From a virus (Duplodnaviria > Caudoviricetes), in the IMG/VR virus record IMGVR_UViG_3300011339_000490, positions 1 through 28,220 of that record: 28,220 nucleotides of DNA; one strand, 5' to 3'. The stretch's first letter is position 1. The number at the start of each line of letters is the position of its first letter. Made by a program: the position numbers and the translations under genes. Below, piece after piece: positions 15,754 to 23,827 of this stretch. The notes beneath the pieces are model-generated. The model saw only the letters and a list, made by a program, of their open reading frames with translations. It did not search any database and was not told the DNA's origin.

Positions 15754-15840
15754 GCGTTCAAGCAGGCAAGCCCGTCGCCTTTGGCGGGCTTGCCAGCCAG
15801 TAAGAAACTAATCAGAAACTAACTAAGGAGAGTAAGACAG

Positions 15841-16188: not shown

Positions 16189-16195
16189 TACATAG

Positions 16196-16235
16196 GTAGG
16201 TGGGTGACTCAAGTAGTCACCCATCTACTTTTTTT
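16196..16235 (+). terminator. Intrinsic terminator
   Basis: GTAGGTGGGTGACT-CAAGT-AGTCACCCATCTAC (14-bp stem, one G-U) followed by T7. Confidence 0.9.
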
Positions 16236-16304
16236 CGCGGGGTTCTCGTAACCACAACGGACACCTGCAAGTCCACAGTTTATATTTGACAAGGAGAAAC
16301 TATT

Positions 16305-16484: not shown

Positions 16485-16702
16485 TGTTGAACCTCAAGAC
16501 ATCTATAAGTGGATACACGGTATCCACAGTAGCACTACCATTTGCAATGGGCTTAGACTTATATGAAACTATAGTCTTTGACAAGCAAGACGCAGAGGTA
16601 GATATGTTTACACGTAGATACAGAACTTATGATGAGGCAGAAACAGGTCATCATGAGACAGCAGACCAAGTAGAATACACAGTAAGAGAGAGGCTAGTAT
16701 GA
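16484..16702 (+). CDS. Hypothetical protein
   Basis: 72 aa with a YETIVF...RYRTYDEAETGH motif; coupled on both sides. Confidence 0.75.
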   Translation: MLNLKTSISGYTVSTVALPFAMGLDLYETIVFDKQDAEVDMFTRRYRTYDEAETGHHETADQVEYTVRERLV

Positions 16703-17632: not shown

Positions 17633-17799
17633 AGACATACTATAGAGTTACCTGCGACATTACAGTTGAAGCAGGTGATGATGACAATGCATTATGGATG
17701 GTCCAAGATGCATGCAAGTTATATCCTGGAGTAGAGTTTACTCGCTGGATATTTATAGAAGCAGATGAAAGAGAGAGCCATGACAACGAAGATAACTAG
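17629..17799 (+). CDS. Hypothetical protein (56 aa)
   Basis: Hand-translated MKTYYRVTCDITVEAGDDDNALWMVQDACKLYPGVEFTRWIFIEADERESHDNEDN; ATGA overlap. Confidence 0.6.
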   Translation: MKTYYRVTCDITVEAGDDDNALWMVQDACKLYPGVEFTRWIFIEADERESHDNEDN

Positions 17800-18268
17800 C
17801 CGACTCGAAGAGTTGGGTTCACTAGCAAACAATGAAGACAATGCAATTCAGCGTGATGGTGCAGACCTAATCGCTGAGTTCTTTAATGCACCACATGTTG
17901 TAAGTATGGAGACGGCTGCACTTGTACTCCATTACCTAACAGACATTCAGGTGCGTGACTTTGCACTAGGTCTACTTGACCCAGCCAAAGCAGAGCAGCA
18001 AGTATCCATGCTTGAGTATCTAGTAGAGCAAGCACCAACAGACAGTGAGTTTATAAATGCACCTGCATGTTTACTTGCTCAGTTCTTATACGAACAAGGT
18101 GACACAGCAAATGCAGTGCTAATGCTAATCAATGCACAAACAGATTATTCACTAGCATTATTGCTAATGCGTGTATTCCGTAGCGGATGGGAACCAAAGT
18201 CATTCGCTAAGATGCGCGAAGAACTACACCCTAAAGTAGTAGCAGGTATCTATGGAGAGAGTAACTAA
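17780..18268 (+). CDS. DUF4192-like protein
   Basis: QVRDFALG...APACLLA...YEQG...YSLALLL.R...GWEP resembles the C-terminus of actinobacterial DUF4192; start at ATG 17780 preferred. Confidence 0.65.
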   Translation: MTTKITSRLEELGSLANNEDNAIQRDGADLIAEFFNAPHVVSMETAALVLHYLTDIQVRDFALGLLDPAKAEQQVSMLEYLVEQAPTDSEFINAPACLLAQFLYEQGDTANAVLMLINAQTDYSLALLLMRVFRSGWEPKSFAKMREELHPKVVAGIYGESN

Positions 18269-19290: not shown

Positions 19291-19356
19291 GTTTACCTTA
19301 GCATGGGTAAAATCGCATATACTTTACATATACCTTTTGGTATGTAAAGTACACCT

Positions 19357-19391
19357 CACTGGGTTGCTCCGCCAGTGGCGAACACGGAGCA
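19357..19391 (+). promoter_or_regulatory. H-type RNA pseudoknot in a 5' leader
   Basis: S1 CACTGG/CCAGTG, S2 TGCTCCG/CGGAGCA, L1 2 nt, L2 0 nt, L3 7 nt. Confidence 0.65.
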
Positions 19392-19417
19392 CACAACCTA
19401 CAAACAGAGAGAGAAAC

Positions 19418-19843: not shown

Positions 19844-19998
19844 TGCAAACACCAGTAACTACTATGCAAATCTTCCGAGAAGAAGATGAGTACTTCTTAG
19901 TTGAAATCCAAGCAGACGGAAAGATTTCTCTTAAGCGTAAAGTATATGGCTGGTCAGATGTATGGTCACTACCTCTTGAGGTGAGCAATATTAAATGA
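19843..19998 (+). CDS. Hypothetical protein (51 aa)
   Basis: Hand-translated MQTPVTTMQIFREEDEYFLVEIQADGKISLKRKVYGWSDVWSLPLEVSNIK; TAATG and ATGA overlaps. Confidence 0.7.
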   Translation: MQTPVTTMQIFREEDEYFLVEIQADGKISLKRKVYGWSDVWSLPLEVSNIK

Positions 19999-20372
19999 CA
20001 GAAGCCTATGTACCATACAATGGTACTGCTGGCTGGTCAAGTACGGATACGTCTAAGCAGAGAGCCTTAGATAATATTTACTCTGGTCGGGAATTAAACA
20101 ACCAGCAGTCAGCGTTACTCTATTTAAAAAATGCAGGTGAGTTAGGGCTAACCTGGAAAGAGTTAGCCACTGAAACAGGCTGGCATCACGGCACTGCAAG
20201 TGGAGTGCTATCAGTATTGCACCAGTCAGGTGCAATCATACGTTTATATAGCGTTCGTAATAGATGCAAAGTATATGTGCATCAGAATTATAAAGACGCT
20301 TATAACAAATACGAAGTATATAAACGCAAAGAAAAACTTTGTCCGCATTGCGGGCACGACATCAACGCATAA
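19995..20372 (+). CDS. Winged-helix DNA-binding protein with C-terminal CPHCG
   Basis: GLTWKELATETGWHHGTASGVLSVLHQSGAI fits a wHTH pattern. Confidence 0.7.
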   Translation: MTEAYVPYNGTAGWSSTDTSKQRALDNIYSGRELNNQQSALLYLKNAGELGLTWKELATETGWHHGTASGVLSVLHQSGAIIRLYSVRNRCKVYVHQNYKDAYNKYEVYKRKEKLCPHCGHDINA

Positions 20373-20383
20373 GCCGTTCCTTA

Positions 20384-20392
20384 TGCTATGAT
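20384..20392 (+). promoter_or_regulatory. Putative extended -10 promoter
   Basis: TGcTATGAT; the expected start (~20399) coincides with the base of the downstream hairpin. Confidence 0.55.
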
Positions 20393-20399
20393 GGGACAA

Positions 20400-20447
20400 C
20401 CAGTGAGCGGTAGGTTTTTGGCTCTCTCCTTGTCCTACCGCCACTGG
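20400..20447 (+). ncRNA. Hairpin RNA with anti-RBS loop (cis switch or trans-acting sRNA candidate)
   Basis: CCAGTG-A-GCGGTAGG / CCTACCGC-CACTGG 14-bp stem; 19-nt loop TTTTTGGCTCTCTCCTTGT. Confidence 0.6.
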
Positions 20448-20465
20448 CTAATCTAAGGAGAAGAA

Positions 20466-21239
20466 ATGGCAGAAGTAGAAGTACCTAGAGATAGGTATGG
20501 CAGACCAATGATTGTGCCACCGAAGGGTGGCAAGCCAGTACCATACACACGCACTACTACAGTTGCAGGTTCACTAGATGATGGCACTGCATTAGTAGCA
20601 TGGAAGTTACGCATGGCTGCAACTGGATTAACGTTGCGTAACGATTTGTTATTGTCGGCTAGTGCTATGCGCGATAACAAACTAGAAATGGATAAGTTAG
20701 TTGAAGATGCAATGGAAGCAGCAGGTGCAACTAAGCAGGCTACTATTGGTACTGCGATACATGCACTAACAGAAAAGTTAGACCGAGGTCAAGACCTTGG
20801 ACCTATACCAGAAGATTATGTTGCAGATATACAAGCATATGCAGAAGCAACTAAAGCATTCACCAACATACATATCGAACAGTTCTGTGTGCTAGACAAG
20901 CATAAGATTGCTGGCACACCAGACAGAATTGTAGAATACAAAGGCGAGAAGTTTATCTCTGACCTTAAAACAGGTAGCATTAGTTACCCTAACAAGATTG
21001 CCATGCAGTTAGCAGTGTATGCACACGGCTTGCCGTATGACCCTGCTACGGCAACCCGTGGTAGTTGGGGTGACATCAACACAGAGAAAGGAATCATTGT
21101 GCATCTACCTGCTGGTAGTGGACAATGTACTCTGCACTTTGTAGACTTAGTTCATGGCTGGAAAGGTATTGAACTAGCCATGAAAGTAAGAAAGCATCGC
21201 GATAAAAAGAATATATCAACACCAATACAAGGAGAATAA
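20466..21239 (+). CDS. PD-(D/E)XK exonuclease (RecB/RecE/Cas4-like)
   Basis: GTAIHALTE, IEQ, AGTPDRI, ISDLKTG, QLAVYA motifs. Confidence 0.88.
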   Translation: MAEVEVPRDRYGRPMIVPPKGGKPVPYTRTTTVAGSLDDGTALVAWKLRMAATGLTLRNDLLLSASAMRDNKLEMDKLVEDAMEAAGATKQATIGTAIHALTEKLDRGQDLGPIPEDYVADIQAYAEATKAFTNIHIEQFCVLDKHKIAGTPDRIVEYKGEKFISDLKTGSISYPNKIAMQLAVYAHGLPYDPATATRGSWGDINTEKGIIVHLPAGSGQCTLHFVDLVHGWKGIELAMKVRKHRDKKNISTPIQGE

Positions 21240-22647: not shown

Positions 22648-22997
22648 GTAACGCAGCAAAAGCCAAAGGCTCTGGAGCAGAACGAGATGTAGTTGCATAT
22701 CTAAAAGAGAACGGCTACAAGTATGCAGACAGACGATTGGCTGGCGCTACGCTAGACAAAGGTGACATCTCAGGTATACCTGGAGTTACAATTGAAATCA
22801 AGAACCATGCCAAGATGAACTTGGCTGGTTGGACAGAAGAATTGCTCATAGAAATGGGCAATGACGGGGCGTGGACAGGCGTGGTGTGGCACAAGCGAAA
22901 AGGGAAGCGGAGCCCTAGAGATTGGTACTGCACCATGCCTGGACATGTTTGGTTAGACCTACTAAAGAGAGCCATCAATGGAGAAACCAAGCATTGA
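22644..22997 (+). CDS. Holliday junction resolvase-like PD-(D/E)XK endonuclease
   Basis: KAKGSGAERDVVAYL...GDISG...IEIKN; start moved to ATG 22644. Confidence 0.8.
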   Translation: MSNAAKAKGSGAERDVVAYLKENGYKYADRRLAGATLDKGDISGIPGVTIEIKNHAKMNLAGWTEELLIEMGNDGAWTGVVWHKRKGKRSPRDWYCTMPGHVWLDLLKRAINGETKH

Positions 22998-23355
22998 AGA
23001 ATACCTGCGCTACATAGGTGCAGATACACCGCCAATAGGAAATGGTTGGCGTAAGATGAAATGCTGCTTTCATTTAGATAGTCATGCAAGTGCAGCAGTA
23101 AACTACGATAAGAACGCTTTTGTCTGCCACGGTTGTGGAGTCAAAGGCGATGTCTACTCTTTAATTATGTATAAGGAAGGAGTTAATTTTCGTGAGGCTA
23201 AACAATTCGCAGAGACAGTTCTTGCTTCAAGCAACACAGAGGTACGCAGAGAAAATAGAAATAGCAGAACGGTATCTGTTAAGCCGTCAACTCTCGGTAG
23301 ACGAGGCAAAAGTCTTTCACTTGGGAGTGGTCGAAGACCCGCTTCCAGGGCATGA
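22978..23355 (+). CDS. DNA primase CHC2 zinc-binding domain (separate ORF)
   Basis: CCFHLDSHASA...FVCHGCGVKGD...EGVNFREA. Confidence 0.88.
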   Translation: MEKPSIEEYLRYIGADTPPIGNGWRKMKCCFHLDSHASAAVNYDKNAFVCHGCGVKGDVYSLIMYKEGVNFREAKQFAETVLASSNTEVRRENRNSRTVSVKPSTLGRRGKSLSLGSGRRPASRA

Positions 23356-23827
23356 ACCATATAAAGGTAGACTAGCAATCCCATATATCACGCCATCAGG
23401 CGTGGTTGATATTAGATTCCGTGACTTGACTGGCACACATGATGCCAAGTATATGGGTCTAGTTGGTGCTGAGACTACTATGTTTAATACGCAAGCAGTT
23501 TTTGCAGCAGACAATTACATATGCGTGACAGAGGGTGAGTTCGACTGCATTATGATGACAGTTAAAACTCAACACCCAACAGTAGGTATTCCAGGCGCTA
23601 ACAACTGGAAGAAACACTATGCTAAAATCCTAGATGACTTTGATGTAGTGGTAGTACTAGCCGACGGCGATGCCCCTGGACTAGAGTTTGGCAAGAAGAT
23701 TAGCCGTGAGTTGGGCAACGTAAACATTGTTAGTATGCCAGACGGCGAAGATGTCAACAGCATGATAATCAAACAAGGGAGTGAGTGGATTGACGAACGA
23801 ATCAGAAAATGCATTACCACTGAATGA
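23192..23827 (+). CDS. DNA primase catalytic TOPRIM domain
   Basis: GRLAIPY, KY, ICVTEGEFD, GIPGA, LADGDAPG, PDGEDVN; GTG start after AGGAG. Confidence 0.9.
   Translation: MRLNNSQRQFLLQATQRYAEKIEIAERYLLSRQLSVDEAKVFHLGVVEDPLPGHEPYKGRLAIPYITPSGVVDIRFRDLTGTHDAKYMGLVGAETTMFNTQAVFAADNYICVTEGEFDCIMMTVKTQHPTVGIPGANNWKKHYAKILDDFDVVVVLADGDAPGLEFGKKISRELGNVNIVSMPDGEDVNSMIIKQGSEWIDERIRKCITTE

Follow-up and report, generated by a model that had tools for sequence, protein, structure and literature searches.

A conserved hairpin at the head of a phage replication operon: a candidate anti-RBS RNA whose loop changes together with early ribosome-binding sites

The Locus and Its Genes

The window, i.e., the whole stretch of 28,220 nucleotides analysed here, is a virus record of 28.2 kb with 43.8% GC. 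Its minus strand carries the terminase and portal genes. The plus strand has small genes, most of them unnamed, between 15.0 and 20.4 kb and, behind this block, a replication operon, which comprises in this order an exonuclease, a gp49-like protein, a DnaB-like helicase, a RusA-like resolvase, a primase, a sigma-like factor and WhiB. The primase is made of two overlapping open reading frames (zinc finger and TOPRIM, 22978–23827), as it is in the relatives seen. In what follows, “early” refers to the upstream plus-strand block, “middle” to the operon and “late” to the minus strand; these labels reflect position and gene content only. Gene starts were called with a simple in-house caller. At the head of the operon lies a hairpin preceded by a promoter-like box (Table 1).

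In the genome collection that was searched for the exonuclease, no prophage or host contig carries the gene, and the host of the phage therefore had to be inferred. An acI (freshwater actinobacterial) host is likely because WhiB, a sigma factor and a GC content of about 45% are likewise found in cultured ‘Ca. Nanopelagicales’ phages (PMC10202952). Among named phage genomes, no relative of the exonuclease exceeds 42% identity; the closest is that of Dulem virus 32, where the gene has no intergenic leader.

The early block contains further structures. A GC-rich hairpin (15763–15797) lies ahead of gene 15841; 3' of this gene follows a strong stem with a run of T (16194–16236), which resembles a terminator and would divide the block. 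The gene itself had been labelled SSB in a first-pass annotation, a name for which neither Pfam nor PHROG gave a hit. The gap after the DUF932 gene holds an AT-rich, near-perfect inverted repeat (19316–19350) with weak promoter-like matches on both strands. Gene 19995–20372 has a MarR-like HTH match below the cut-off and a C-terminal CxxC, and ends inside the upstream inverted repeat of Table 1. It is a candidate regulator of the operon promoter; an Atlas search with it matched viral clusters only, all of them unnamed.

Table 1. Features of the hairpin region and sites complementary to the loop, in coordinates of the window
Feature	Position	Strand	Remarks
Candidate target RBS AAGGAGAG, gene 15841	15825..15832	+	−15.1 kcal/mol; orthologous RBS follows loop type
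Candidate target RBS ACAAGGAGA, gene 16305	16289..16297	+	−13.8 kcal/mol
Candidate target RBS GAGAGAG, gene 16699	16686..16692	+	−15.2 kcal/mol
Strongest candidate target RBS GAGAGAGCCA, DUF4192 gene 17780	17771..17780	+	−19.5 kcal/mol; orthologues follow loop type
Candidate target RBS GGAGAGAG, DUF932 gene 18268	18254..18261	+	−17.0 kcal/mol
Candidate target RBS GAGAGAG, gene 19418	19407..19413	+	−13.2 kcal/mol
Upstream inverted repeat, CCGT(T/C)-type loop	20367..20386		z = −3.8; possible operator or RNA hairpin
Extended −10 promoter-like box TGnTATGAT, TGCTATGAT	20384..20392	+	Start predicted at ~20399, base of stem; function predicted
Hairpin stem, 14 bp, one bulged A	20400–20414/20434–20447	+	Fold and covariation in relatives
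Putative anti-RBS loop, 19 nt, core CTCTCCTT	20415..20433	+	Core kept in relatives; co-varies with early RBSs
SD AAGGAGA, first operon gene	20455..20461	+	Follows loop in G-loop class only
PD-(D/E)XK (Cas4-like) exonuclease	20466..21239	+	Pfam PF12705, phrog_466; first gene of replication operon
RBS ACAAGGAGA, second operon gene (gp49-like)	21227..21235	+	Matches loop; mostly without co-variation
Ninth match AGAGAGCCA, before primase zinc-finger gene, middle region	22966..22974	+	−16.3 kcal/mol; absent from first-pass annotation

Structure and Conservation of the Hairpin

The extended −10 box and the 14-bp hairpin at the predicted start, both described in the first-pass annotation, are indeed there, about 6–7 nt apart. 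The 52-nt element folds with −27 kcal/mol (z = −5.0), which none of 200 shuffles equalled, while the 82-nt span originally annotated (20384..20465) reaches a z of −2.1 only. It is the single hairpin with such a loop on the plus strand of the window; the minus strand has none. Searching the whole window with the Rfam covariance models, including those of c4, RNAIII and RsaE, yielded no match at E values up to 1. The box is not among the calls of a −35/−10 consensus promoter scan, and a terminator scan called none at the hairpin of the window. The number of T residues around the stem end varies between hairpins, at least four out of ten being T in 55 of 129.

Relatives were collected by their exonuclease (about 60–100% identity), which gave 296 loci with enough upstream DNA, some contigs being represented twice. 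A stem of at least 8 bp with TCTCC in its loop was found at 283 of these. The 13 misses are heterogeneous: the hairpin turned up on re-scanning in five (L026, L071, L353, L360 and L361), L038 and L280 contain variants recognised by eye, L364 is too short, and L276, L289, L292, L297 and L299 lack the hairpin. In L026 and L038 the gene behind the hairpin differs from the exonuclease; the hairpin therefore belongs to the operon head, not to the exonuclease. Among the matches listed in a genome pattern scan, those in a hairpin context precede the exonuclease and one precedes an inserted gene; in the remaining matches listed, no stem was seen by eye.

Conservation of the loop and covariation of the stem, on which the first-pass annotation had made its proposal depend, are both observed. 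In relatives with at least 80% exonuclease identity, the core CTCTCCTT is nearly fixed while the stems vary: it occurs in 69 of 70 distinct hairpins with 68 distinct stems. Two-sided changes affect 10 of the 13 stem pairs in 18 relatives hand-picked for diversity. None of 500 shuffles reached the covariation score, the structure having been derived from that same 18-sequence alignment. When 131 distinct hairpins were aligned with Watson-Crick pairs only, G-T exceeded A-C by 67 to 16, which indicates an RNA of the plus strand. The stem presents an unpaired, C/U-rich loop on the presumably transcribed strand, as a trans-acting anti-SD loop RNA does. The box also keeps its place. In 98 of 121 distinct hairpins, the pattern TGnTAnnnT is found no more than 22 nt from the stem, with a modal gap of 6 nt; the corresponding share of random windows is 2.1%.

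Neighbouring Elements

The upstream inverted repeat overlaps the promoter spacer and the stop codon of the 19995 gene. Its arms change together in relatives, with a weak strand bias (G-T 17 versus A-C 9). It was considered as a second targeting loop and discarded as a general one, its loop not being generally complementary to gene starts. The exception is L201. There, about 108 nt upstream of the exonuclease start, the loop of the upstream hairpin complements the first early-gene RBS over at least 11 nt without mismatch (15 nt by eye), and in that clade it is possibly a second targeting loop, as judged from this complementarity.

A compact motif resembling an H-type pseudoknot, with two stems of 5–6 bp and a fixed GCGAACAC linker, is found on the plus strand of the window at 19357–19392; Rfam has no match to it. 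The 3 kb upstream of the exonuclease contain this linker in 21 of 69 loci, with both stems changing in step. The place of the motif varies: in the window it precedes an early gene, in other clades it lies immediately 5' of the hairpins, and in a lineage without the TCTCC hairpin it directly precedes the exonuclease RBS. L276 has neither promoter nor loop; there the motif is joined directly to the 3' arm of the hairpin, and the early RBSs keep GGAGAC. This arrangement is either a deletion or an assembly artefact.

Complementarity to Ribosome-Binding Sites

The reverse complement of 20419–20434 is as the first-pass annotation gave it, and all eight substrings that it had listed ahead of gene starts are where it placed them. 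Its description of the sites as belonging to eight early genes holds for the six upstream genes, whereas those at 20455 and 21227 are part of the hairpin's own operon. Similarly, the match that includes GACAAG is present, but base 20434 is in the stem and the match to the loop proper amounts to 9 nt.

Any C/U-rich loop would match purine-rich sites to some extent. With the 14 early starts of the window, the real loop pairs at a mean of −11.75 kcal/mol, while 2000 shuffled loops have a mean of −8.8 kcal/mol (p = 0.003) and shuffles with the CTCCTT core held fixed one of −9.7 kcal/mol (p = 0.013). It thus surpasses composition-matched loops. Its pairing amounts to −10.2 kcal/mol with middle starts, 7 of 14 of which reach −10 kcal/mol or better, and to −7.6 kcal/mol with late starts.

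The 16S tail of the host is another conceivable source of the match. Of 62 rRNA loci retrieved with an acI probe, 59 end in the same GGATCACCTCCTTTCT (first 16 bases) and three stop short. This tail accounts for AAGGAG and, with one G-U pair, for AGAGAG(G). The argument that GAGAGAG goes beyond the canonical anti-SD is therefore weaker than originally thought, since the tail 3'-UCUUUCC explains part of it with one G-U. The tail of the likely hosts is invariant, however, and therefore cannot explain the C/T/G switching between clades described below. It pairs better with early than with middle starts in 14 of 37 genomes only; the phages' own loops do so in 34 of 37.

Joint Change of Loop and Early Ribosome-Binding Sites

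The loop base 5' of TCTCC predicts the base that follows GGAGA at early starts. Distinct sites were counted in 69 de-duplicated loci, taken from 136 with at least 4 kb upstream. Where the loop base is A, T follows GGAGA in 30 of 35 early sites; with G it is C in 107 of 157, and with T it is A in 3 of 6. With C, the loop base of the window's own clade, the 178 early sites have the complementary G 68 times and A 73 times; it is in this clade that the loop-RBS match is weakest. The second and third positions match too, the top triplets being CTA, TAG, CAG and CAA for the loops TAG, CTA, CTG and TTG, respectively. At the orthologues of genes 15841, 17780 and 18268, the RBS switches along with the loop.

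The co-variation that the first-pass annotation proposed to look for is confirmed by a swap test, in which 13 loop types were exchanged against the starts of each type: p = 2 × 10−5 for early, 0.51 for middle and 0.60 for late starts. It comprised 62 of the 69 loci, L239, L234, L213, L028, L022, L293 and L367 being unassigned. With swaps confined to within the two deep clades, p was 0.006 for early and 0.65 for middle starts; each deep clade taken alone is borderline for early starts (p = 0.056 and 0.028). The types yTCG and TGCAG rank their own loop 6th and 8th of 13, and cross-pairing between types is still sizeable, with a mean of −9.0 as against −9.7 for the own loop. Of 679 early starts, 219 have a perfect complement of 8 nt or longer, as compared to 14 of 325 middle and 3 of 136 late ones. 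In the exonuclease tree the loop base has changed four times, and the pair of A-loop and GGAGAT appears in both deep clades. Five sister contrasts, selected after the tree had been seen, all go in the predicted direction. RBS variants of the wobble type, which were inspected as a test of RNA pairing, gave no clear signal. Taken together, the comparison of genomes points to complementarity with several RBSs beyond chance and to compensatory evolution.

Held-Out Loci and Deviating Lineages

A further 121 loci were fetched after the prediction had been written down. The TCTCC hairpin is present in 62 and absent from 59 of them. Eleven of the 62 are new hairpins, five of which face three or more sites, and four of these five fit the prediction. 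All five are of known loop type, the four fitting ones being known types with new stems; the single miss is a C-loop phage, L503. In L576, another of the eleven, with a single site, the upstream repeat appears to have been picked instead.

Some lineages deviate. L504 and L505, which are closely related to each other, have a new loop core, CTCTTTC, and with it go GAAAGAG-type sites, at 5 of 20 upstream as against 0 of 20 other starts; this pair thus speaks for joint change of loop and sites. L506 has box and hairpin, yet none of its nine early starts matches over at least 7 nt. Most of the hairpin-less new loci form one lineage, which has another hairpin with a TTCATTTC loop. In L539, L617 and their kin, this covarying hairpin lies 60–100 nt upstream of the exonuclease, and its conserved loop complements a start codon in the context GAA-ATG-AA. 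Early starts seldom match it: only 1–4 of 10–15 are complementary over at least 7 nt, and there is no clear bias in energy. In favour of the proposed pairing, the base after GGAGA in the lineage without the TCTCC hairpin is mostly A (22 of 42 sites).

Proposed Mechanism and Alternatives

The hairpin is probably a trans-acting anti-RBS RNA that damps early translation; from the comparative evidence, we assign this reading a probability of about 0.63. As a trans regulator, the element proposed in the first-pass annotation gains from the co-variation of loop and early RBSs across clades, which is absent in middle and late genes, while its cis part fares poorly (see below). Transcription from the box would begin at the stem base. 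The hairpin would then form the 5' end of the replication-operon (middle) transcript or, if termination is partial or the transcript is processed, a short RNA of ~50 nt; the hairpin RNA may also arise by read-through from the early operon. The loop is predicted to pair in trans, over 7–12 nt, across the SD of presumed early mRNAs, their tag being an extended SD that consists of AAGGAGA plus a clade-specific extension. Such pairing would block 30S loading, and early translation would fall as replication begins. Transcription and its timing, the form of the RNA, free or as an mRNA leader, and the repression as such are what we infer here from structure, strand, the fixed spacing of the box, complementarity and joint change.

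That the loop instead pairs with the SD of its own downstream gene in a pseudoknot, and thereby gates exonuclease translation, had also been suggested. AAGGAGA indeed lies 7 nt 3' of the stem in the window, the complementary C is found in the exonuclease SD of 50 of 61 G-loop phages, and the swap test over all 13 types gives p = 0.034. Only 3 of 108 C-loop phages and none of the 26 with an A-loop, however, have the complementary base, i.e., the SD does not follow the loop in two of the three large classes, and within clades p rises to 0.25 and 0.22. The linker measures 4 nt or less in 28 of 116 hairpins, and the median stem has 15 bp. By general geometry, a linker of this size is too short to span a stem of ~15 bp in an H-type pseudoknot. 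Neither the spanning linker nor the co-variation of loop and own SD that marks an H-type pseudoknot leader is thus generally found. A cis element would also leave the covariation with early genes unexplained, and we consider it highly improbable; pairing with the SD on another copy of the same mRNA is possible. The chance is likewise very slim that the loop is a generic anti-SD decoy against host mRNAs, or that the element is a stabilising 5' hairpin with a merely compositional match. The loop core does resemble the host 16S tail, and AAGGAGA stands ahead of ATG 19–30 times in each of three acI genomes. Yet the bases following AAGGAGA at these host sites are mixed, the sites belong to a few percent of the genes (gene number being estimated from genome size), shuffles with a fixed core do worse than the real loop, and the clade-specific covariation is limited to early phage genes.

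Could tags and loop be copies of one protein site? Such a site might be a DNA repeat of the operator or stoperator type or an RNA site like that of RegB, and the loop would be its inverted copy directly behind the promoter. The early tags resemble the T4 RegB consensus GGAGRAYARAA (PMC3014915), the gene with the weak MarR-like HTH match lies just upstream, and the SAS motifs discussed below persist without a mirror loop in TM4, Pixie and AnnaSerena. A DNA site, however, needs no stem, and here a covarying, G-U-biased stem always frames the inverted copy; for a protein that binds RNA, the complementary sequence on the plus strand would be no site. The window has but one such hairpin on its plus strand and none on the other, and the specificity of the protein would have had to change at three adjacent bases several times. 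We therefore regard a protein site as quite unlikely. Unlikely, though to be taken seriously, is a loop that pairs with early RBSs in a main role other than timing of the phage's own cycle: stabilising or fine-tuning, or superinfection exclusion, in which the early genes of a related incoming phage would be blocked and the loop/tag pairs, as they diverge, would come to act as immunity types. If phages escape from cross-repression, loop and tag should switch together time and again among those that share a host; such repeated switching is observed here, the hosts being probably the same. There is a precedent in the c4 RNA, whose pairing near an RBS underlies the heteroimmunity of P1 and P7 (PMC12197685), and the promoter-like box is of the housekeeping type, so that timing is not evident from the sequence. 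Against exclusion as the main role stands the substantial cross-pairing between types mentioned above; moreover, exclusion is compatible with a timing role and does not exclude it.

Comparison with Known Systems

The tags recall the SAS of Cluster K mycobacteriophages and Cluster EF Microbacterium phages (PMC3203893, PMC7302621, PMC11373665). Pope et al. (2011, PMC3203893) described these motifs at ribosome-binding sites of non-structural genes, left open whether their partner is RNA or protein, and noted one inverted copy in four K1 phages; unexplained since 2011, the motifs were in 2024 still called ill-defined (PMC11373665). Like the SAS, the tags of the window are over-conserved, oriented, RBS-positioned, confined to non-structural genes and go beyond 16S pairing. 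The SAS is a near-invariant motif of 13 bp at 10–19 starts, often accompanied by an ESAS, whereas the tags of the window family are short (7–10 nt in the window), degenerate and switch between clades. There is no sequence relationship between the two.

In Anaya, Adephagia, Niklas, Enkosi, Murucutumbu, Validus and OkiRoe, a long hairpin, whose stem varies, displays the inverted SAS copy in its loop (L432:2160–2215, which is the Adephagia 92–93 gap, L420:34840–34900 and L428:285–345). The mirror loop of Anaya is found in its record at 59870 and that of Adephagia at 58685 (z = −6.2), within the 92–93 gap, where late transcription appears to start according to RNA-seq (PMC11373665). The Anaya region is matched in 158 phage records, in 126 of them over most of its length; in OkiRoe the mirror hairpin has a different position, before the small terminase gene. 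The mirror loop is absent from the whole genomes of TM4, Pixie and AnnaSerena, which are listed as SAS phages (PMC7302621), and from 627 bases of Feyre; in Ekdilam and LeMond (right arms only), the SAS is unchanged and the loop altered. The mirror loop is thus present in 7 of 13 SAS phages, a set partly chosen by similarity to Anaya. As the SAS is kept in six phages without an intact mirror loop, it does not require the loop, and a universal link between SAS and mirror had to be rejected.

One may, tentatively and leaning slightly to the negative, think of a general “tag and mirror” circuit, in which a private extension of the SD tags a gene class and the loop of a next-phase hairpin silences this class, the pairs diverging as lock-and-key immunity types among co-infecting phages. 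Such a circuit would explain the SAS in part of Cluster K. If the proposed reading is true, ribosome-binding sites here encode a temporal switch comparable to RegB of T4 but made of RNA alone, and this in a widespread family of freshwater phages whose likely hosts are the most abundant bacteria of lakes. The matched loop/tag pairs form a natural series and thereby a ready-made compensatory-mutation experiment. The reading would also provide the SAS motifs of Cluster K with a concrete, testable candidate partner, in a phage and a host for which genetic tools work, with a mirror loop in part of the cluster only. A literature search, with most subscription journals outside its coverage, yielded no description of such an element. 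Five loop strings are absent from six of the nine supplement files of a survey of 10,006 candidates (PMC10690425); the other files may hold the hairpin without naming it.

Among established regulators, the c4 RNA of P1/P7 comes close: it acts in trans on an mRNA of its own phage, with loops that pair close to an RBS, as predicted here, and its specificity differs between related phages, as the loop types do (PMC12197685). It controls, however, one antirepressor operon in temperate phages (PMC12197685), whereas here one loop faces many dispersed RBSs. T4 RegB is a protein nuclease that needs S1 (PMC3014915), while the masking of sites predicted here is the work of an RNA loop. Pfam and PHROG scans of 31 window proteins named no RegB-like gene. 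In S. aureus, RNAIII and RsaE use a C/U-rich loop as the seed from which they pair with several mRNAs at their SD regions. Both are encoded on the chromosome, regulate host genes and work with generic UCCC motifs; in the phages described here, by contrast, loop and targets reside on one genome and co-evolve. The hairpin may thus be seen as a variant of the loop-presenting anti-SD RNAs, one for which comparative evidence argues for pairing in trans.
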